Shown here: positions 11,566-20,737 of the stretch, one piece after another
Numbering within the stretch: position 1 is the stretch's first letter
Layout: each line of letters starts with the position of its first letter
Origin: an uncultured Candidatus Saccharibacteria bacterium
GTDB taxonomy: Bacteria; Patescibacteriota; Minisyncoccia; 2-02-FULL-40-12; GWA2-44-9
Assembly: GCA_964513645.1 (NCBI GenBank)
Contig: CAZENF010000001.1
Span: 135,303-199,302 of the forward strand
Length of the DNA: 64,000 nt
Direction of reading: 5' to 3'
Notes under the pieces: generated by a model
The model's input: only the letters and a program-made list of their open reading frames with translations
Databases searched by the model: none
What the model was told of the DNA's origin: nothing
Made by a program: the position numbers and the translations under genes

Positions 11566-11799
11566 ATGTACACTGTTTATATATTAAAAGACGGCTTTGG
11601 TAAGCTATATAAAGGAATGACAAACAATTTGAGCCGGCGATTAAGTGAACACCAGTCAGGGCATACAATTACCACTTCAAAAATGATAAATTTTAGAGTT
11701 GTATATAAAGAAGAGTATGCAAATTTTGAAGAAGCAAGAAAGCGAGAATTATATTTTAAAACAGCCGCAGGACGAAGATTCTTAAAAAAGGTCATATAA
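11566..11799 (+). CDS. GIY-YIG nuclease superfamily protein (small, YhbQ/UPF0213-like)
   Basis: MYTVYILKDGFGKLYKGMTNNLSRRLSEHQ matches the GIY-YIG N-terminal motif. Start moved to the internal Met. Confidence 0.8.
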   Translation: MYTVYILKDGFGKLYKGMTNNLSRRLSEHQSGHTITTSKMINFRVVYKEEYANFEEARKRELYFKTAAGRRFLKKVI

Positions 11800-11814: not shown

Positions 11815-11887
11815 CCGCCCATAGCTCAGTTGGTAGAGCAGCTCCCTTTTAAGGAGATGGTCGTAGGTTCGACTCCTACTGGGCGGA
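11815..11887 (+). tRNA. tRNA-Lys (anticodon UUU), no encoded CCA
   Basis: 73-nt cloverleaf: acceptor CCGCCCA/TGGGCGG, D-arm GCTC-AGTTGGTA-GAGC, anticodon loop CTTTTAA, T-arm GTAGG-TTCGACT-CCTAC. Confidence 0.9.
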
Positions 11888-13342
11888 CAAGATTGAAAAG
11901 TCAGCATTTTTAGGAGTGTTGGCTATTCTAAAAAATGGTTTTTTATATTGTATTTCCTGAATTTCTTTATTTTCGAACTGGATGTTCCAAAGTACGGAAT
12001 TTAGTATTTGATACCTTTCTGAATCTTCTCCAAATAAAAAGTCATTTTTAGCATTTTTGGCTTGTAAAAATACTTCTTTTGTTTGTTCCAAAGTAGTTAG
12101 GGCAGAATTAATATTACCCTTCTTGATATGGCCTAGTTGGGCTTCTAATTCAACTCTTTGATTATTTAGTTCGAGCATTTTCTCATCATAGAGGTCTTTT
12201 CTAATTGTTCCGGAAGCAAAACCATCAGTCAGTCGTGATTCTTTCTCCTTGATCGAATTTAGCTCATTCTGAACGTTTTTAGATAGTACCTCGACTCGGT
12301 TATTACTCAAACCAATCTTCTGTTTAGCGGCCTCATACATAATTTCGATTGCCTCATCATCAAAAGCCAAATCACCAAGCTTGTCAGCAATCAATCTGGC
12401 TATATATTCTTCTCGCATATATGATTTTCCCTGTTCGCAATTGCCTTTGCCATTAGTACAGTAATAATATCTGTGTCCTCGTTTTAGGGAAGCTGTAAGC
12501 ATACAACCACACTCTTTACATCTCATCGAACCTCTCAACGGAAAGAACAATGTTTTTTGTTTTGGCCTGGAAGCCTGATTAATAACCTCTTGGCACCGAT
12601 CGAATAATTCTTTTGAAACAATAGGTTCAAATTTACCTAAATATTCCTCTCCATTCTTGGCCATAATTCCATAATAAATTTTATTATTTATATGCCGATG
12701 AATACTTCCTAAGAACATCTTGCCTCCAGATTTAGTTCTTAAACCTTCCTCGTAGAGCATATCTGAAATATCCTCAAAACTTTTAGTTCCAGAGGCATAT
12801 AACTCAAATATTCTTTTCACCCAATGGGATTTATCATTCGGGAATAATTGTTTAGTAGACGAATCACGAGAATATCCAAAAGGAACTTGAAACGGCCACC
12901 TGCCCTGTCGCAAACTTTCACGATTACCCCTTTTTACATTTTCAGCCAAATCACGGCTATACTGATTAGCCATACCGAAATGAACTAAAATCATTAACAC
13001 GTTGTCTTTTGGAAGATGAATTCCCTGATAGGTTCTAATTTCTTTAATAATATTTTTCTGAAGAAGATCTATTATTTGGCCGCCGTCAATTAAGTTTCTT
13101 GCCAACCTGTCCTCTTTCCAGCAAAGAATAGCATCTGCTTTTCCGCTAGTAATCATTTTTATCATTTGGGCAAATATTGGCCGCCCGAGAGATTTAGCTG
13201 ACTGGCTTTCTTCAAATATTTTAATAACTTTTAAATTATCCCTTATTGCGATTTCAAGAAGCTCTGTTTTTTGAGCATCCAAAGACATGACTTGTCTGTC
13301 TTCCGATTCAGTAGATTTTCGGCAATAAATTATATATCTCAT
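11876..13342 (-). CDS. Large serine recombinase (integrase)
   Basis: N-terminal resolvase catalytic domain (YCRKSTESEDRQVMSLDAQ), recombinase domain, a zinc ribbon (CKECGC…YYYCTNGKGNC) and a coiled coil. The 3' end overlaps the tRNA-Lys 3' end. Confidence 0.9.
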   Translation of the reverse strand: MRYIIYCRKSTESEDRQVMSLDAQKTELLEIAIRDNLKVIKIFEESQSAKSLGRPIFAQMIKMITSGKADAILCWKEDRLARNLIDGGQIIDLLQKNIIKEIRTYQGIHLPKDNVLMILVHFGMANQYSRDLAENVKRGNRESLRQGRWPFQVPFGYSRDSSTKQLFPNDKSHWVKRIFELYASGTKSFEDISDMLYEEGLRTKSGGKMFLGSIHRHINNKIYYGIMAKNGEEYLGKFEPIVSKELFDRCQEVINQASRPKQKTLFFPLRGSMRCKECGCMLTASLKRGHRYYYCTNGKGNCEQGKSYMREEYIARLIADKLGDLAFDDEAIEIMYEAAKQKIGLSNNRVEVLSKNVQNELNSIKEKESRLTDGFASGTIRKDLYDEKMLELNNQRVELEAQLGHIKKGNINSALTTLEQTKEVFLQAKNAKNDFLFGEDSERYQILNSVLWNIQFENKEIQEIQYKKPFFRIANTPKNADFSILSAQ

Positions 13343-14070
13343 TTTTCTTCGTAAGTTTTTCTGTTTATAATCCCCACAAATTCATTCATACCATGCCATT
13401 CATAGATAGGCTTTCTTTTAGCATACTTTTCAGCAATTCTTTTTGCAACCTTTTTTCTCATAACTATTTCTTTTGGAAAGCCATGGGATATCCTAAGAAG
13501 CCTCATAGCATTAAACATTACTTGTTCTCCACCCTTGGTGATATATCCGGTGATATAAGTTGCCAGCTTTCCAGAACCGTCAGTTTTTCTCGCATCCACA
13601 TATCCTTCTCCCCAGAGATTCGCAAGAACTCGGGTACTTCGCTCCTCTCCATAGGAAATAATCCGTCTACCAACGCACGTATCTCCGAGAGACAATGGCA
13701 CGTTAAAAATAAGGCCATGGAAGTGTATACGTCCCCTTGGCGATAATTCCGGGACGAAAAGTGAATATGGTTTGCCATATTTAGTTCGCAACCGCATTTG
13801 GAAAATGCGTAAGGAATCATTTGCAAAAGAGGCATCTGATGCATCTCCAGCAAAGGTGAGCGTGACCAAAATCGGACATCCAAATTCTTTAAGAGCAGCA
13901 TGCACGCGCCGCATACATATTTTTCTTGTCCTCCAAATATTATCGGGTCGCCTAACGCCGTATATGGTACGCTTCTTTCTGCGACGACGTACGCATATTT
14001 TGGGCGGGGCTTTTTCGAACGTTGTGACTTCAATAATTTTTCCATATTTTTTAACAATATTAATCATCAT
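13339..14070 (-). CDS. Rolling-circle replication initiator (HUH endonuclease, two-Tyr type)
   Basis: Motif I ILVTLTF, motif II HFHGLIF (HUH), motif III YITGYITK. Its stop overlaps the recombinase start. Confidence 0.75.
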   Translation of the reverse strand: MMINIVKKYGKIIEVTTFEKAPPKICVRRRRKKRTIYGVRRPDNIWRTRKICMRRVHAALKEFGCPILVTLTFAGDASDASFANDSLRIFQMRLRTKYGKPYSLFVPELSPRGRIHFHGLIFNVPLSLGDTCVGRRIISYGEERSTRVLANLWGEGYVDARKTDGSGKLATYITGYITKGGEQVMFNAMRLLRISHGFPKEIVMRKKVAKRIAEKYAKRKPIYEWHGMNEFVGIINRKTYEEK

Positions 14071-14293
14071 TTTTGCAATTGTGAGGGTATATCAAGTCTT
14101 GGGGATTGGACGTCTCGTCGGGCGCTTCGCGCACCCCGCCGAGACTATCCGAACCTACCCCAGCAATTGCCAAATAAAAATCAGCAAACGAATCCAAATA
14201 TTCCTCGGCCTCTGCAGGAGTTAAAATATCGCCGTATCTATCGGCAAAATACTTTTGAATCCGTTGAATTAAATTAAGACTAAATTTGCTCAT
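14060..14293 (-). CDS. Hypothetical small acidic protein
   Basis: 77-aa ORF upstream of Rep with no recognisable motif. Confidence 0.3.
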   Translation of the reverse strand: MSKFSLNLIQRIQKYFADRYGDILTPAEAEEYLDSFADFYLAIAGVGSDSLGGVREAPDETSNPQDLIYPHNCKNDD

Positions 14294-14410
14294 ATACTCA
14301 GTTTCGCAATTGCCAAAAACAACTTTTAGATAACTTCAGAACGAATAAAAAATAAAAAAGACCCAGTAAAAAGGGCCTTTCGAGAAGCGGCTATAAACAA
14401 TAGCTAAAAG

Positions 14411-15289
14411 TTATTCCATATTGTCCAAGGAATATTCATAGATTTTATTCAGAGAGTATCCGCTGGTATCATGCCGGATAATTAAATCCTCCGTAAGCTT
14501 TAACTTCTGACGGAACGCCTTGTTGGTTCGGCTTATTTCCTGCATGATTATTCCCGGTCTTTGCTTGGTTAATTCTTCAAGCTTAGAAAGCTTTGCTAAT
14601 TCCCGAGATAAATTCTTTATGATGACAAACCTCTTTGAGCCACGACGAATTGGGTAATTAAGTTTCTTGTTTTTTACTACTCTATAAATACCCAGCGAAT
14701 CATCTATAAAAATTTTAATCTTTTCTTGAGATTCTGCTTTTTCTGGTTCATCCGTTATTTTCTCGACTTCCGGTATAAATTGAATATGGAACTTTCTTAG
14801 CTCATTTTTGTAATAACTTCTTTCTCCTTCGTAAGCCTTGGCATAGGATTTTAATCCCTCCTTAGACCATTTGAAATAATTTTTAGGATTCTTATGATAA
14901 CCGCGCCTAAGAACATTCTTTAATCCTTTAAGCATAATTAAAGCAACCGGATCTTGGTCTTCATCAAATTCATCAGTAGTCATATAATCCTCAAGGGGGA
15001 AATATATTTTAATGTAGAGAGTTAAATAATGGGCGGTATATAAATTATATCGCTCGAGCTTAGATATCTGCTCTGATCTTAATCTTGCGTTTGCATCCTC
15101 GGTTTTAGAATCCAAAATTTTAATATTAGTTTTACGATATTGTTTTTCTGTGTCATTAATAATCTTGGCTAGGGCAGGAGTTTTAACTATAAAATCAATG
15201 TATTTATGTACATTTTCATAAAATTCGGAATCAGAATTGCTCTGAAGCGCAGCATCATATCTGATTTTAAGCCCACCCATTAAATCCAT
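14411..15289 (-). CDS. Hypothetical protein (island cargo)
   Basis: 292 aa, charged and helical, with no recognisable motif. Confidence 0.45.
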   Translation of the reverse strand: MDLMGGLKIRYDAALQSNSDSEFYENVHKYIDFIVKTPALAKIINDTEKQYRKTNIKILDSKTEDANARLRSEQISKLERYNLYTAHYLTLYIKIYFPLEDYMTTDEFDEDQDPVALIMLKGLKNVLRRGYHKNPKNYFKWSKEGLKSYAKAYEGERSYYKNELRKFHIQFIPEVEKITDEPEKAESQEKIKIFIDDSLGIYRVVKNKKLNYPIRRGSKRFVIIKNLSRELAKLSKLEELTKQRPGIIMQEISRTNKAFRQKLKLTEDLIIRHDTSGYSLNKIYEYSLDNME

Positions 15290-15349
15290 GCACAGGATAC
15301 TAACATATAAATTAGATTTTTTTAATACTGGTGCTATACTAATTTTGCA

Positions 15350-16156
15350 ATGAAACCATACTATGATAAAAATAATTTCAAACTATATCAGGCAAACTGC
15401 CTAGATCTACTATCCGAGCTCCCAGAAAATTCCGTTGATATGATCTTTGCCGATCCACCCTACAATCTCTCTAATGGCGGTTTTTCCGTTCATGCCGGCC
15501 GAATGGTCAGTGTTAACAAGGGCGATTGGGATAAAAGCAAAGGATTTAAAGATGATTATAATTTTCACTATAGCTGGATGGAGGCTTGTAGAAGGGTTTT
15601 AAAGCCACATGGTACACTCTGGGTTAGCGGAACATATCATTCAATATATCAGTGTGGACATGCTCTCCAAGCCCTTAATTATCACATCCTAAACGATATT
15701 GCCTGGTTTAAGCCAAACGCTTCACCCAATTTAAGCTGCCGATTCTTTACCGCAAGCCACGAAACATTAATCTGGGCTAGAAAAGAAAAGAAGGCAAAGC
15801 ATATCTTTAATTATGATTTAATGAAAAACGGCGAATGGCCGGAAGATAAATTAAAAAAGCCAGGCCTACAAATGAGATCTGTATGGTCAATGGGAACTCC
15901 AAAACCGATTGAAAAAAGATTCGGAAAACACCCTACACAAAAACCGGAAGATCTGTTAAAAAGAATAGTATTAGCCAGTACAAAGAGGGGGGATCTTGTA
16001 GTTGATCCTTTCACTGGAAGCTCAACAACGGGGCTTGCATCATATCTACTCGGCAGGAAATTTATAGGCGTTGATACCGAAAAAAAATATCTGGACTTGT
16101 CTATAAAAAGATTCGAAGAGTTAGATAAAAATTTAAAAAATAAGTCTAACAAATAA
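15350..16156 (+). CDS. DNA methyltransferase (N6-adenine/N4-cytosine, beta-class)
   Basis: Motif IV IFADPPYNL precedes motif I VDPFTGSSTTG, which is the beta-class order. Confidence 0.85.
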   Translation: MKPYYDKNNFKLYQANCLDLLSELPENSVDMIFADPPYNLSNGGFSVHAGRMVSVNKGDWDKSKGFKDDYNFHYSWMEACRRVLKPHGTLWVSGTYHSIYQCGHALQALNYHILNDIAWFKPNASPNLSCRFFTASHETLIWARKEKKAKHIFNYDLMKNGEWPEDKLKKPGLQMRSVWSMGTPKPIEKRFGKHPTQKPEDLLKRIVLASTKRGDLVVDPFTGSSTTGLASYLLGRKFIGVDTEKKYLDLSIKRFEELDKNLKNKSNK

Positions 16157-16157
16157 T

Positions 16158-16682
16158 ATGAAAAAATTTGGAATTGGAGGAGCAAATACAAAAACAGGGC
16201 TAGTCTTTGAGGGCAAAGTTGATTTTTTAACCTTTATCGCTAAGCAAAAAAATTACTCTGTTAAAGGTGCGAATATTTTTTATAACAGTGATGAAGTTGC
16301 CATGTCGTTTAAAAAATATGGCCTTTATAAGTACTTAGAAAGCAAAGGGATTGATTATAAAAAATTCATATCAAAAAGACTTCTTCCGGATGATGCTATC
16401 TATGTAATAGCCAACAATCATTTTTATATACTTGAGATTAAATTTCAGGAAGTCGGCGGATCCGTTGATGAAAAACTCCAAACCTGTGATTTCAAAATTA
16501 AACAATATAAAAAACTACTCTATAGTTTAAATGTTGAAGTTGAATTTATTTATATTTTAAGCGAATGGTTTCAGAAGCCGGAATATAAAGACGTTCTTGA
16601 TTATATAATTTCTATTCCGGGCTGTTCTTTCTACTTTAATTACTTGCCTCTCCAAAAAATAGGCCTTCCCATACCAGAATAA
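16158..16682 (+). CDS. Putative type II restriction endonuclease partner of the methyltransferase
   Basis: Starts 1 nt after the MTase stop. Possible PD-(D/E)xK core (PDDAIYVIANNHFYILEIKFQ). The assignment is by context. Confidence 0.45.
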   Translation: MKKFGIGGANTKTGLVFEGKVDFLTFIAKQKNYSVKGANIFYNSDEVAMSFKKYGLYKYLESKGIDYKKFISKRLLPDDAIYVIANNHFYILEIKFQEVGGSVDEKLQTCDFKIKQYKKLLYSLNVEVEFIYILSEWFQKPEYKDVLDYIISIPGCSFYFNYLPLQKIGLPIPE

Positions 16683-16826
16683 ACGCGTTTTTGGCTCGCC
16701 AAAAATTATACCACGCGGGGACCCCTACTTCGTCACCCCGCGTGGTGGCGAGCCTTGCGAGCCAAGGGAAAACGCTTCACAAATCGACTAAATTCTGATA
16801 TATTCGCCGTGTTTAATAAATAAGTC

Positions 16827-17258
16827 ATGATCTCATACGAAGAACTTAAGAAGATATCCAGAACTCGTATTGCCGAAGCGCAAATTCTTTTTGATAACGA
16901 AAAATTTGATGGGTCAATCTATTTATGTGGCCATGCGATCGAGATAGCTTTAAAGGCCATAATATGTAAAAATTTAAGAGGGTCTACTCAAAGTTTTGGT
17001 CATATACCAAGCACCATATCTGAATTCAAAACTGTAGCCGAAATGAAAACTCATAAATTAGATGAGCTTCTAGCCGCAACAGGACTACAAGTTGAAATCA
17101 CATCAAAACCAGCAAGATGGACTGCTTGGAGCACGCTATTAAAATGGAATCCTGAAATCAGATACTCGCCGATTAAGGGGAGGCTCATGAAAACTAGCGC
17201 TGAAGAAGTTATTAATTCTGCTAATAAATTGTTACATTTTTTCTGGCGTCAAGTCTAA
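16827..17258 (+). CDS. HEPN domain protein
   Basis: Helical protein with a HEPN-like pattern (GSIYLCGHAIEIALKAI … THKLDELL … EIRYS). Confidence 0.55.
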   Translation: MISYEELKKISRTRIAEAQILFDNEKFDGSIYLCGHAIEIALKAIICKNLRGSTQSFGHIPSTISEFKTVAEMKTHKLDELLAATGLQVEITSKPARWTAWSTLLKWNPEIRYSPIKGRLMKTSAEEVINSANKLLHFFWRQV

Positions 17259-17269
17259 ATAGAATAACA

Positions 17270-17635
17270 ATGGAAGATATTATAAAAAAATTAAATAAGG
17301 TCCTAGAATCAATTCTTAAAGAAAGAGATGTTGTTTTGTTTGCTGTTATTAAAAGAGAAGATGCCGAATTGTGGGATATAGTCATTTCAGGTAATCAACT
17401 TGATAATCAAGAAAACTTGAGGTGGATAATAGGCCTGATAAATAACGTCTTAGAAAAGAATGAGATGACAGCATTCTCTCGCTTGTTATTATTAAATACT
17501 GACGAGGATTTTGTAAAAAATCTAACAAAAACTTTTGGATTTACAACTAAAGACGGTCGTATGGAACTGAAAAACGTAAGAATTAATAATATATTTATTA
17601 AGCACGCATATTTACTCAGGAGTAGGACAAAATAA
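17270..17635 (+). CDS. Hypothetical protein, possibly a degenerate minimal-nucleotidyltransferase-like partner of the HEPN protein
   Basis: VVLFAVIKREDAELWDIVI resembles the MNT core (FGSxARG…DiD) but with the catalytic residues replaced. Confidence 0.3.
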   Translation: MEDIIKKLNKVLESILKERDVVLFAVIKREDAELWDIVISGNQLDNQENLRWIIGLINNVLEKNEMTAFSRLLLLNTDEDFVKNLTKTFGFTTKDGRMELKNVRINNIFIKHAYLLRSRTK

Positions 17636-17639
17636 ATTT

Positions 17640-18413
17640 ATGTTCAATGATAACATACAGTATAAAAAGAAGGTGATAAGAAGAGTCTTGGCTTATTTTA
17701 GCGGTGGTAACACTGGGGTTGGTTCAGGATTTTTTGTAAATAAGAATGGAATATTTTTAACGTGTTTTCATGTTGCATTTGGGGGAGAACTTAAAAATCT
17801 AAGAAATGATCCAGATTTTATTGCCATTAAAGAATCCGATGAACATAAAAAATTAGAGACTTGGTATTCTAATAAAATTAATAAAATAGAAGTTGAACTG
17901 CCCGATTCATCCAAAGAAGAATTAAAATTAGTTAGCTTTGATGAAAAATATGATATTGCAGTCTTAAAACTGGAAAATAAAGAAAAAATTAGAGATATAG
18001 ACAACATAAAATTTGATTTTAAAAAACAGCTTAAACAGGGTGACCATGTTTTCTTTGGAGGATTCCCGATAAGCTATCCATATAAAGCAGAAGAGTCGCC
18101 TTTTGCAATAAACACAGGGATGGTTTCTAGTTTCCCTAACACTATTATCGGAGGAGACTTCTATGAACATGCCCAGATAAATTCAGTAAATTTAGGAGGA
18201 AATAGTGGTGCTCCATTATTTATAAAAAATAAAAATAAAGTCATAGGAATTATTAATGGGAATATGAATTGGGGTAGTGATTTTGTGGTATTTAAAAATA
18301 AATCTGGCAAAGAAGAGGTGGGGCCTCTGAGAGTTCCCTTAAGTATAGCCTACGCAACACCCGTAAGCTTACTTAAAAAAGAAAGTAAGGTTTTTAAATC
18401 AGCTATAAGCTAA
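17640..18413 (+). CDS. Trypsin-like serine protease (S1 family)
   Basis: His motif LTCFHVA. Ser motif GGNSGAPLF. Confidence 0.75.
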   Translation: MFNDNIQYKKKVIRRVLAYFSGGNTGVGSGFFVNKNGIFLTCFHVAFGGELKNLRNDPDFIAIKESDEHKKLETWYSNKINKIEVELPDSSKEELKLVSFDEKYDIAVLKLENKEKIRDIDNIKFDFKKQLKQGDHVFFGGFPISYPYKAEESPFAINTGMVSSFPNTIIGGDFYEHAQINSVNLGGNSGAPLFIKNKNKVIGIINGNMNWGSDFVVFKNKSGKEEVGPLRVPLSIAYATPVSLLKKESKVFKSAIS

Positions 18414-18724
18414 ATAGCACTGTTCCAACATCCTCCCACAGGGCGGACCACATCGGATTGAAGGCGCTGAAACGCGCCTTCCGTCCTTATGAAATCAGCA
18501 TTACTTGCGGTTCGAACTCTGAGCAAATGGGCGAGCTCGTGAGGCAGTTCGGAATATCTATGCGGCCTTCTTTTCGTGTTCTTTTGCCAGATGCAAAAGG
18601 GCCAAAAGCTTACGAATCTCAGTCATTATCGTGTTCGAATTTTCTCTGACGTGGCGGACCTAGGCTTAAGTTTCCAGATGATGGGCGTCGCAAAATGCCC
18701 ACTCAAGTATCCTTATAAATAGGC

Positions 18725-19023: not shown

Positions 19024-20619
19024 TTAAAATCTAGACCATGAACTACCCTGGGGCCTTCCCTGTCCCTGGCTAGTTGGCGGTGGAGCTGGCCTTGACGGCG
19101 GCGGTTGATTATTCTTATTTCCATTATTAGCGGATCCTCCTTGGGAAGAATTAGGAAGATTCTGTTTGTTCGCAGGCCCTATATATTGTCTATTATCATT
19201 TGTTGGACCAATACGTTCATTCTTATTACTTTGTGTAGTATTAGATCCATTTGTTATATCTTTAGCAGAATTATCTTGATTTTTATAGCCATCATAATAC
19301 TCAGTCACACCGACTACACCTAATATGCCAGCAGCAACTACTTTAGCCCAATTTGGAATATTTGGCTTCATGTTTTTTATCATATCCCCTGGATCTTGAG
19401 CCTGTGGCTGCCCTTGAGCACTGGTAGGTATCTGCGGCTGAACCCACCTCATCTCAGAAATATTCTGAACTATGGCATTTGCAGCATAGTAAAGTGCGGC
19501 AGCTCCTGCTATTGCATACGGAGCCCACATTGGTAGTGTCGCCGCTTCAAGAACAACTTGATTTCCCGTAGGATCTGTATTTTTGACCGGGTTATTCCTG
19601 GCATACGCATATGAATTTAGTTGCTGTGGATCGGCTAGTTGCTCTCTTTGATTCTGTCCTGTAAGCGCTCTGAATCTATTGTTGTCCCCAATCGCCAAGA
19701 AGCTTGGATCCTGACTCATAAACCTTCCCCATTTGCCACTTTGATAGCGTGCATTCGCATAGTTCAGTGATGTCGTCTGGTCAAATTCATATCCGGTGAA
19801 TTTTCGTTGTTCGTTAATGTGTGAGCCGTTACTGTTTTGGTCGAGTCTTACCTCTCCATACGGATAGTAATCAGTCAGTTCAATCTGCTTGTCTGAGGAG
19901 TTGGTAATTATTGAGCTTCCGGTCAAATTATCTGTATGAACATAGCTAACACTTGCTGTGCTCCCCGTCCCGATAACATCAGCAACCAATGTCCCACCTG
20001 GAGTAAATATATGCTTGTATCTTGTAGTGCCGTCGTAGTTGTAGAACTTAGTGGGATAGTAAGTAGTATTAGTAGCCGTCTTGACCTTAACTCTTTGACC
20101 GGTATAGTCATAAGCATAAGATGAAGAAGCTCCATTGCCGGTTACCTTACTTACTCGATTGTTATAATCCCAGGTATAGGAGGTGGAAGGTACGGATGAG
20201 AACTTATAGAAGGTGCTGGGAGAGGATTGGTTGTTGTATTCGGTTTTGACCCAGGCAGAAGAGGCGGTAACATTCTCAATTCTTGTCTCGTCCAATATAC
20301 CATTGGTATAGCCTATATTATCTCCTCTTTGACCGATGTAAACACCAGTAGAATTTCCGGTGAATAGACCTATGCCAGGAGTGCGGTCAGCGGCGCTTAG
20401 GTCAGTACCATCAACATACATCTTATAGGTAGTGCCGTCGAAGGTAGCAGTGACTAGATGCCATCCAAAAGCTATATCTCCGCTTGAATTAACATTAACA
20501 GCTGTGCCAGCAGCAGCAGCATTGGCCAGATAATAAAGTCTTTGGGTAAAGGCGGTATTGGCACCTAGAATCAACATCACTTGCGGTTCGAACTTTTTTG
20601 TATTTATTGACGACCCCAA
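19024..20619 (-). CDS. RHS repeat-associated core domain protein (short/orphan form) with a C-terminal polymorphic domain and a Q/N/P-rich tail
   Basis: LamG-like N-terminus and YD repeats (YDYTGQRVKV, YYPYGEVR). RHS core end RYQSGKWGRFMSQDP … NPVKNTDPTGNQ. Two hydrophobic segments and a low-complexity tail follow. Confidence 0.8.
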   Translation of the reverse strand: MGSSINTKKFEPQVMLILGANTAFTQRLYYLANAAAAGTAVNVNSSGDIAFGWHLVTATFDGTTYKMYVDGTDLSAADRTPGIGLFTGNSTGVYIGQRGDNIGYTNGILDETRIENVTASSAWVKTEYNNQSSPSTFYKFSSVPSTSYTWDYNNRVSKVTGNGASSSYAYDYTGQRVKVKTATNTTYYPTKFYNYDGTTRYKHIFTPGGTLVADVIGTGSTASVSYVHTDNLTGSSIITNSSDKQIELTDYYPYGEVRLDQNSNGSHINEQRKFTGYEFDQTTSLNYANARYQSGKWGRFMSQDPSFLAIGDNNRFRALTGQNQREQLADPQQLNSYAYARNNPVKNTDPTGNQVVLEAATLPMWAPYAIAGAAALYYAANAIVQNISEMRWVQPQIPTSAQGQPQAQDPGDMIKNMKPNIPNWAKVVAAGILGVVGVTEYYDGYKNQDNSAKDITNGSNTTQSNKNERIGPTNDNRQYIGPANKQNLPNSSQGGSANNGNKNNQPPPSRPAPPPTSQGQGRPQGSSWSRF

Positions 20620-20737
20620 TGTGTGAATGTTTGAACCTGTTCAAAGTTTTTTGAGTTTGGCGGACAAGCATTGATAAATTGCTATATAAGTGTTATTTTT
20701 TTCTGAGTTTTTTGAAAGAGATATTGTGAGGATTATC

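Follow-up and report, generated by a model that had tools for sequence, protein, structure and literature searches.

We have examined a 64-kb stretch of contig CAZENF010000001.1 from an uncultured Candidatus Saccharibacteria bacterium (hereafter the window) and, within it, the group of genes located beside a tRNA-Lys gene. These genes very probably represent a compact integrative replicon, plasmid-like and of the rolling-circle type, in its integrated state; it belongs to a family widespread in Patescibacteria. With high confidence the element can be placed at about 11881-18448 (~6.56 kb), where a large serine recombinase (LSR), a rolling-circle initiator of the HUH type (Rep) and a set of cargo genes were found (Table 1). 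The backbone of the family runs in the order orf77, predicted origin, rep (with the overlapping orfX), LSR and attP. A first-pass annotation of the same letters had already proposed an integrated element at tRNA-Lys, and the tRNA, the recombinase, the HUH Rep and the cargo were all found at the positions that it gave.

Results

Limits of the element

The window was searched with ARAGORN for tRNA genes and with Rfam for RNA models. A single tRNA gene was reported by ARAGORN, tRNA-Lys(UUU) on the forward strand (11815-11888); it matches RF00005 over its full length (70.5 bits, model positions 1-71 of 71) and is intact. The final 8 nt of this gene (11881-11888) form a core, GGGCGGAC, which occurs again at 18441-18448. 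Across 11.9-18.3 kb the G+C content is 30-38%, in contrast to 40-49% outside, and as this trough matches the proposed boundaries it supports the limits given above. Host-level G+C resumes at a perfect hairpin (18460-18481), whose sequence suggests that it is probably the terminator of the ancestral empty site. The right end, set by the first-pass annotation near 18450, was borne out; the far-end attachment (att) site lies at 18422-18448. Another right boundary was considered at 20659-20668, where a 10-nt match to the tRNA end (CTTGTCCGCC) is located; it is not followed by a P-arm motif, ~0.7 such matches are expected by chance and the G+C content is already at host level, so we regard it as a chance match.

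Table 1. Features of the element and of its junctions with the host, in window positions (a slash marks the predicted nick)
Feature	Position	Strand	Remarks
tRNA-Lys(UUU), target gene	11815..11888	+	tRNA-side junction: B arm, core and P' arm
LSR, 488 aa in the integrated form (...SILSAQ, stop)	11876..13342	-	PF00239, PF07508, PF13408
Rep, rolling-circle initiator (HUH), 242 aa from the second ATG	13339..14067	-	upstream ATG at 14070 gives 243 aa
orfX, overlapping open reading frame in rep frame +1, 175 aa, Cys-rich	13518..14045	-	frame open in relatives
orf77, small backbone protein	14060..14293	-	tblastn matches directly upstream of rep in ~20 loci
Predicted double-strand-origin nick site, GACTTG/ATATACCCTCA	14082..14098	-	nick probably between 14093 and 14092
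GC-rich hairpin directly 5' of the nick motif	14112..14145	-	fold z-score -4.6
orf292, semi-conserved accessory gene	14411..15289	-	homologues beside the backbone in L005/L008, L017 and L035
Type II N6/N4 DNA methyltransferase	15350..16156	+	PF01555, 6.5e-57; PADLOC MTase_II, 2.3e-99
Candidate restriction endonuclease, 174 aa	16158..16682	+	judged from its place beside the methyltransferase
HEPN-domain protein	16827..17258	+	PF05168, 8e-09
HEPN partner, 121 aa	17270..17635	+	three homologues; AlphaFold2 pLDDT 88
Trypsin-like serine protease (Trypsin_2)	17640..18413	+	PF13365, 2.7e-17
Far-end junction: core GTCCGCCC (18441-18448), then P arm TGT-GGGAGGATGTTGGAAC (18422-18437)	18422..18448	-	motif unique; 1 mismatch to the family
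Host-flank perfect hairpin, GAAGGCGC-TGAAAC-GCGCCTTC	18460..18481		12 nt past the core

Relatives in Patescibacteria

By exact-protein look-up and pattern scans of genome and metagenome collections we gathered ~90 loci; the non-redundant relatives number ~60, all of them in Patescibacteria. Rep has 260 homologues at 60-70% identity, and every match with an organism name comes from Patescibacteria or the candidate phyla radiation (CPR). In each locus with enough sequence rep is followed by the LSR gene within 0-550 nt, and in ~35 non-redundant loci the LSR gene meets a convergent tRNA gene, 3' end against 3' end, the two abutting or overlapping. The targets represent 12 anticodon types (Lys-ttt, Lys-ctt, Trp, Gln-ctg, Gln-ttg, Leu-taa, Leu-gag, Gly-ccc, Ser-cga, Ser-gga, Tyr and Asn). 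Only part of the relatives carry orf292, and the genes other than orf77, rep and LSR vary by locus; orf77-rep-LSR was therefore taken as the backbone and the remainder as cargo, which in the relatives includes Shedu (SduA, 1e-30), Thoeris-like TIR, type II restriction-modification, the PDC-S02 nuclease, Fic and NUDIX.

One relative, L026, is a 5,751-bp contig whose 55-bp terminal overlap indicates a circle of 5,696 bp, carrying Shedu, an orf77 homologue, rep and LSR. The open reading frame (ORF) of its LSR (517 aa) runs through the core and the P arm of an intact attP and ends with ...AVWDDVGTGLTISL and a stop. Terminal overlap was found neither in 48 metagenome loci nor in three further contigs of 6.5-7.4 kb. 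The long LSR of L092 was also considered as an episomal form and rejected, as it represents read-through of tRNA-Tyr antisense. No description of this Patescibacteria family was found in the searchable literature, outside which subscription journals largely fall.

Far-end attachment site

At the far end of the element, GTTCCAACATCCTCCC (18422-18437), when read as its reverse complement, gives a 16-mer that recurs across the family, GGGACGATGTTGGAAC. This 16-mer was scanned for, with up to 3 mismatches, in the window and in related loci totalling 423 kb. The window has one copy, with 1 mismatch in 16, and the related loci have ~47, always in the rep-LSR orientation, as compared to ~3 occurrences on both strands in shuffled sequences. 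Every copy is preceded by a short core of 4-12 bp matching the 3' end of the tRNA of its own locus. In two loci with an 86% identical backbone (L015 and L048) the 40-bp far-end site is 97% identical and the cargo is unrelated.

The 16-mer is similar to a tRNA T-arm (GGGAC...GATTCGAAC), with its T-loop-like hexamer placed 21-22 nt from the core, versus 16-17 nt in the tRNA. This offset of +5 bp was recovered automatically in 10 of 14 loci and by hand in 3 more. Structural work on a Listeria integrase bound to attP reportedly shows an LSR half-site motif displaced outward by ~5 bp in attP as compared with attB. As the offset fits this geometry, we read 18422-18448 as core and P arm, the T-arm and acceptor of the tRNA as B arm and the last LSR codons as P' arm; the far-end T-loop-like motif may be the half-site of the zinc-ribbon domain. 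In GTTGGAAC the third codon positions are nearly invariant, and this lack of variation suggests that the motif is constrained as DNA in addition to being coding sequence. The first-pass annotation had seen at 18422-18450 a decayed repeat of the tRNA 3' end: the repeat is real and its 8-bp core identical, but the rest is not a decayed copy, being instead a conserved att half-site which mimics the T-arm at +5 bp. The 16-mer was also considered as the Rep origin, and rejected, because its copies follow tRNA-specific cores and a better candidate origin lies upstream of rep.

Serine recombinase and its C-terminal tail

The LSR matches PF00239 Resolvase (positions 2-145 of 145, 1.9e-22), PF07508 Recombinase (2.2e-15) and, at the cut-off, PF13408 Zn_ribbon_recom (25.3 bits), as well as the phrog_95 integrase (1.6e-83); it also resembles CcrA, CcrB and XisF, in all cases below their cut-offs. 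Both overlaps described in the first-pass annotation were recovered. The start of the LSR gene overlaps the rep stop by 4 nt (ATGA). At the other end its last 13 nt fall within the acceptor 3' strand of tRNA-Lys, in which the final four codons and the TAG are written, so that the tRNA provides the stop. The last LSR codons (PKNADFSILSA) hold the P' arm of attP.

Episomal tails were reconstructed by joining the 3' end of the LSR gene to the far-end site of integrated loci; automatic choice of the core as the longest common substring was wrong in some of them, e.g. L017, L018 and L033. In at least 19 loci the reconstructed tail is in frame and consists of A(V/L)W(D/E)(D/E)VGT, 5-12 further residues and a stop. 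In the window the excised circle would lengthen the LSR by ...LWEDVGTVLFSL before the stop, which gives a reconstructed episomal end of ...SILSALWEDVGTVLFSL, versus ...SILSAQ in the integrated form. The reconstruction implies that upon integration a conserved C-terminal tail of the LSR (...AVWDDVGT...) is swapped for tRNA-antisense codons, and such a swap may play a role in directionality.

Rep and the predicted origin

Rep matches PF23343 REP_ORF2-G2P with 40.6 bits (cut-off 27.8) and phrog_3419, annotated 'rolling circle DNA replication initiation'. It carries motif 1 (ILVTLTF), HFH and YITGYITK, of which residues T71/F72, H115/H117 and Y171/Y175/K178 are invariant in 26 homologues. PF23343 is matched by all 26 of them and the RepSA profile PF20199 by 15; the gene-A profile matches too. 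Identity is 25-28% to the Reps of small Firmicute rolling-circle plasmids, and 25-36% when microvirus and inovirus-like Reps are included. The AlphaFold2 model (predicted local distance difference test, pLDDT, 85.8) has 238 viral Rep matches in BFVD at E<=1e-3, named ORF2/G2P, gene A or microvirus Rep. Foldseek against the PDB gave weak matches (E>1e-3), many of the top-ranked ones being HUH proteins, and a profile sequence search of the PDB gave no match. The first-pass annotation had recognised a 243-aa protein with HUH Rep motifs, and that assignment stands: PF23343 is above cut-off, phrog_3419 is matched, the motifs are present with invariant catalytic residues, and microvirus and plasmid initiators are among the relatives.

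The origin motif was surveyed by k-mers in 57 non-redundant loci. A conserved 29-nt motif containing CTTGATA is located ~20-50 nt upstream of rep, and the exact 10-mer CTGACTTGAT is present in 45 of the 57 loci, 28-53 nt upstream of rep. The aligned consensus is CCTGACTTGATATCCCCTCATAGTTGTAA and it ends at the orf77 stop codon. Each of 76 loci has a single nick motif, placed on the rep strand; that of the window, GACTTGATATACCCTCA (14082-14098, - strand), has no second copy in 64 kb and shows two substitutions with respect to the consensus. Included in the motif is ACTTG/ATAT, the cleavage site of phiX174 gene A. The conserved GACTTG/ATAT appears, by its sequence, to be a nick motif of the phiX174/pC194 type, nicked presumably at the slash. 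Origins of pC194/pUB110 have CTTGATA as their conserved core (PMC5031790; for the sequence, PMC7072734). This nick core is thus common to the origins of pC194/pUB110, phiX174 and the present family, and phiX174 gpA likewise has two tyrosines (YxxxY), as Rep does here; the family differs in that the origin sits in the 3' end of a small upstream ORF and is preceded by a GC hairpin. The hairpin varies in sequence and keeps its place in ~46 of 50 loci (median dG -31.6 kcal/mol), which makes it a candidate Rep-binding or extrusion element.

The small ORF is orf77, which is conserved over its N-terminal ~45 aa and overlaps the origin with its 3' half. It had no match in profile libraries, Pfam and PHROG among them. 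We consider its product a candidate regulator or directionality factor.

Taken together, the invariant HUH and YxxxY residues, the origin, the RepSA and gene-A matches, the model with its viral Rep neighbours and the identities of 25-36% support a working rolling-circle module.

orfX, an overlapping reading frame within rep

In all 53 non-redundant rep genes, those of an inovirus-like clade of 42-44% identity among them, frame +1 stays open for 157-191 codons; the median in frame +2 is 37. When rep is shuffled by synonymous codons, 2-9 stops appear in the orfX frame, and the synonymous sites of rep are constrained only over codons 9-179, i.e. the orfX stretch. The orfX product (~155-191 aa across loci) starts at an ATG within the Rep codons K-Y-G and has the Cys motifs YVCGxC, SKCGCE and LTCRC. 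No Pfam domain was matched, and 18 representative clusters were. Its location within rep can be likened to that of genes B and K within phiX174 gene A.

Exact DNA 10- to 18-mers within rep, e.g. TTCCAAGTGCGGTTGCGA (rep nt 268-285, window ~13780-13800), are common to 35-43 of 57 loci, the proteins being 60-70% identical. These shared k-mers are probably due in part to orfX, and some may reflect a cis-acting element inside rep, for instance a site bound by Rep or a single-strand origin.

Cargo genes and host flanks

The defence cargo named in the first-pass annotation was confirmed by profile matches for the methyltransferase, the HEPN protein and the trypsin-like protease (Table 1). Next to the methyltransferase, the 174-aa protein matches PDDEXK_11 below the cut-off (E 0.0085) and has no PADLOC match. 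The 121-aa HEPN partner had no profile match, nucleotidyltransferase (NTase) profiles included; with Foldseek it gave weak matches (E>0.01) to AAD(9), to MNT of HEPN-MNT complexes and to nucleotidyltransferases, and its model suggests that it is possibly a degenerate MNT-like antitoxin. The protease resembles the protease domains of defence proteins (RT-Protease_XI, 2.9e-14, and LmuA). For orf292 six database homologues and no Pfam domain were found.

Directly 5' of tRNA-Lys lies an ORF with a GIY-YIG nuclease domain (11566-11799, + strand; PF01541, 1.6e-10). A homologue with 36% identity is located just past the target tRNA-Gln in the unrelated locus L022 (12353-12562), and both a coincidence and a hotspot link are possible. 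On the other side a 25-nt near-repeat, GTTCGAACCGCAAGTRATGYTGATT, is found twice on the - strand (18495-18526 and 20570-20600). One copy encodes the N-terminus (KFEPQVMLI) of a 531-aa Laminin_G_3/RHS-like protein (19024-20619); the second is an orphan fragment between the far end of the element and an 89-aa gene, and may be a displaced N-terminal piece of a polymorphic toxin locus.

Arrays of far-end sites in relatives

About one quarter of the relatives have 2-7 co-oriented copies of the 40-bp far-end site, each composed of the locus-specific tRNA core and the P arm. The repeated sites fall in intergenic gaps and separate cassettes of 1-5 genes (NUDIX, Fic and genes of no known kind) upstream of a single backbone; they were seen in L017/L086 (1055-7211), L020 (1133-16490), L025 (248-7280), L033 (316-2613), L018, L029, L032, L048, L062, L063, L068, L080 and L092. 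In L020 (10001-20149) the LSR gene is followed by a P arm in cis (attP-like junction at 12276), by sites at 12990 and 16490 and by a second orf77 at 20027, at the edge of the locus, an arrangement that suggests two elements in tandem. L005 and L008 are 99.9% identical over 12,248 bp, a stretch that starts past the far-end site (5456), takes in the backbone and stops at the 5' end of tRNA-Gln, and they are unrelated beyond it; either a composite island of >12 kb occurs at tRNA-Gln in two contexts, or one of the assemblies is chimeric at the tRNA.

Discussion

Proposed cycle and points against it

On the preferred reading, that of an integrative rolling-circle replicon, LSR would recombine attP, made of its own last codons, the 8-bp core and the T-arm-mimicking P arm, with the 3' end of tRNA-Lys. 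Recombination of attP with attB is a prediction from sequence, to which the circular relative with a contiguous attP and the occurrence of the same backbone and site with different cargo both point. Since the core is the same as its acceptor 3' strand, the tRNA is left whole. By the same event the LSR ORF would be cut, so that the end ...SILSALWEDVGTVLFSL of the episome would become ...SILSAQ. The excised attP circle would join 18448 to 11889 (...GTTCCAACATCCTCCCACAGGGCGGAC/AAGATTGAAAAG..., slash at the junction), and the empty attB would read tRNA-Lys ...CTACTGGGCGGAC/CACATCGGATTGAAGG. After excision Rep would cleave DNA carrying CCAAGACTTGATATACCC at the origin and copy the circle by rolling-circle replication, for which the element would have to be competent.

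Several points weigh against this reading. For the present copy we could find no junction of the circle and no unoccupied tRNA-Lys: when the flanking genes and Rep were looked up as exact proteins, the outcome was either nothing or short Logan contigs from SRR12313479/80 (L009, L010 and L037), which match the occupied arrangement or are too short. L026 is the only circular contig found in the family, and its terminal overlap may also come from a tandem repeat. The 8-bp core alone is not significant (10-mers, E ~0.7); the crossover dinucleotide is not fixed by sequence, the crossover point given above being the presumed one, and the B' arm falls in non-conserved host DNA. Neither a recombination directionality factor nor a single-strand origin was recognised in the element. 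Finally, Rep could act as a relaxase, instead of or besides being a replication initiator.

Some of these observations would suit a fixed, immobile genomic island, i.e. a defence island beside a tRNA in which integrase, rep and att are relics. Neither an excised form nor an empty site came to light for this copy, its origin hairpin is weaker than that of many relatives, and two positions of its nick motif depart from the consensus. Yet the backbone ORFs are all complete, their catalytic residues being invariant, the far-end site differs from the family motif at 1 of 16 positions, orfX is still open, the reconstructed episomal tail of LSR reads in frame through the family consensus to a stop, and the G+C content is still foreign; we hold such decay to be highly improbable.

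Plasmid-like or phage-like nature

Among the nine ORFs of the element, compared with Pfam and PHROG, and the backbone-linked genes of the relatives no capsid, coat, Zot/pI, adsorption, coupling-protein (TcpA, VirD4) or FtsK-like Tra gene was found, and a scan of IMG/VR gave no relative of Rep. These two results together argue for a plasmid-like, not a phage-like, element. The first-pass annotation had left the choice between an integrative single-stranded DNA (ssDNA) plasmid and a phage-like element; the plasmid-like part is in agreement with LSR, HUH Rep, origin and the circular relative with its attP, but the phage-like part was not borne out.

Distant Reps of 42-44% identity (L077, L078 and L079) are encoded without LSR. 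Directly upstream of the distant Rep a Zot/pI-type ATPase is present in L077 (9012-10756, 4.9e-12) and, below threshold, in L079 (9241-10729, 1.4e-3), together with large ORFs of no known kind, which suggests inovirus-like prophages; the loci carry GACTTGATA upstream of rep. From this neighbourhood an alternative arises: the element may be a satellite of a filamentous, inovirus-like phage, its circular ssDNA packaged by a helper inovirus, as RS1 and TLC are packaged for CTXphi, and LSR giving lysogeny. The term plasmid would then not do justice to its dependence on a virus. The nearest outgroup Reps do adjoin the Zot/pI-type ATPase and share with the family both GACTTGATA and the overlapping orfX, and the neighbours of Rep in fold and sequence are microvirus and inovirus initiators. 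In addition, a serine recombinase acting at a tRNA-Ser 3' end serves the inovirus phiRSM1 (PMC3218068). Like phiRSM1 and phiRSM3, the present element is an ssDNA replicon of the rolling-circle kind which a serine recombinase has placed at the 3' end of a tRNA gene, and its Rep has an inovirus-like sister clade. The phiRSM phages are however complete filamentous phages with coat and Zot-type genes, of which this element has none. Their recombinase is probably of the small resolvase type. Against a satellite speak the lack of coat, Zot and adsorption genes in the backbone of all ~60 LSR-linked relatives, the lack of relatives in IMG/VR, and the facts that no packaging signal was recognised and no helper is present in the window; a satellite is thus an unlikely explanation.

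Replicon or mobilizable element

If the HUH protein were mainly a relaxase, the nick motif would be an oriT and the element an integrative mobilizable element (IME), exported through the type IV secretion system (T4SS) of the host and replicating in conjugation only. Most streptococcal IMEs use rolling-circle-type initiators, the phage-type PHA00330 included, as putative relaxases, and many pair them with serine integrases (PMC5704250). The likeness extends to the compact set of integrase, HUH protein and cargo, to very short end repeats and to accretion with remnants of the cis-mobilizable element (CIME) kind (PMC5704250, PMC5357655). T4SSs of Patescibacteria are described as homologous to monoderm conjugation machinery in PMC12857230, which cites PMC12102498, and the minimal backbone, without partition or copy-control genes, would also suit an IME. 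By contrast, streptococcal IMEs with serine integrases mostly disrupt protein-coding genes and many encode TcpA, while here the tRNA is intact and no coupling protein (TcpA, VirD4 or FtsK-like) was found in the element or in the relatives examined. The closest characterised relatives of Rep are moreover replication initiators of small plasmids and ssDNA phages, and DNA transfer by a T4SS of Patescibacteria is not established in the literature cited. We find it quite improbable that mobilization replaces replication here, and retain the replicon reading. As possible ways for the replicon to pass between cells, both packaging by a helper filamentous phage and mobilization via the T4SS of Patescibacteria, with Rep as relaxase, merit attention.

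Comparison with other elements

The first-pass annotation called the pairing of a serine integrase with a rolling-circle Rep uncommon, a view that needs correcting, as mycobacterial AICEs (integrative and conjugative elements of actinomycetes), phiRSM1 and streptococcal IMEs all provide precedents. In mycobacterial AICEs a serine recombinase is accompanied by the rolling-circle initiator RepSA and a tRNA-Leu. As in the present case, these are small elements at a tRNA 3' end with a recombinase and an initiator of the phiX174/pC194 class, and their excised circles replicate by rolling circle. The differences are that no FtsK/SpoIIIE-type Tra, spread or xis gene is recognisable here, so the Tra gene by which an AICE is defined is lacking, that the host is one of the Patescibacteria, that the backbone has three to four genes and that attP lies inside the 3' end of the integrase gene.

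A parallel to this last trait is found in the ssrA islands of Dehalococcoides, where dsiB, encoding the CcrB-like LSR DsiB, runs with its 3' end into that of the target RNA gene and the C-terminus and stop differ between the circular and the integrated form (PMC3146451). A conserved motif lies beside the direct repeat there too, and tandem islands are bounded by repeated sites, as in L017, L020, L025 and L033. Those islands differ in their target (a tmRNA with a 20-bp core, versus tRNAs and 4-12 bp here) and in their six-gene module (DsiA, RecF-like, ParB-like, Mom-like and others), which has no rolling-circle Rep. Integrons resemble the site arrays of the relatives in layout only, the recombinase here being of the serine type and not a tyrosine IntI.

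Serine recombinase, rolling-circle Rep and tRNA had therefore been combined before; what is new is the well-defined family in Patescibacteria. The attP that mimics a T-arm within the integrase gene, the integrase tail that depends on integration and the gene overprinted in rep go beyond the first-pass annotation.

Possible accretion of cassettes

Canonically an LSR joins attP with attB only, and site arrays are not readily produced by such a rule. As compared with the islands above, the arrays fit a build-up of CIME-like remnants of the kind seen in Dehalococcoides and streptococci. A broader picture, which we put forward as speculative and rather doubtful, would make the family a cassette-accumulating serine-recombinase platform at CPR tRNA genes, with cassette arrays, an integrase tail rewritten by integration and a rep-overprinted orfX shared with inovirus-like relatives. 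If this were true, the rewriting of the integrase tail could act as a built-in directionality or state switch.

Conclusions

Patescibacteria represent a large share of bacterial diversity, and to our knowledge very few mobile elements or genetic tools have been characterised for them. The far-end site provides a natural illustration of the attP/attB half-site rule, and may explain how one LSR lineage was retargeted among at least 12 tRNA species. With an origin, a Rep, an integrase and att sites of ~50 bp aimed at conserved tRNA 3' ends, the family offers a compact toolkit and a candidate vector or integration system. It also appears to move defence systems, namely Shedu, Thoeris-like TIR, restriction-modification and HEPN, between CPR genomes.

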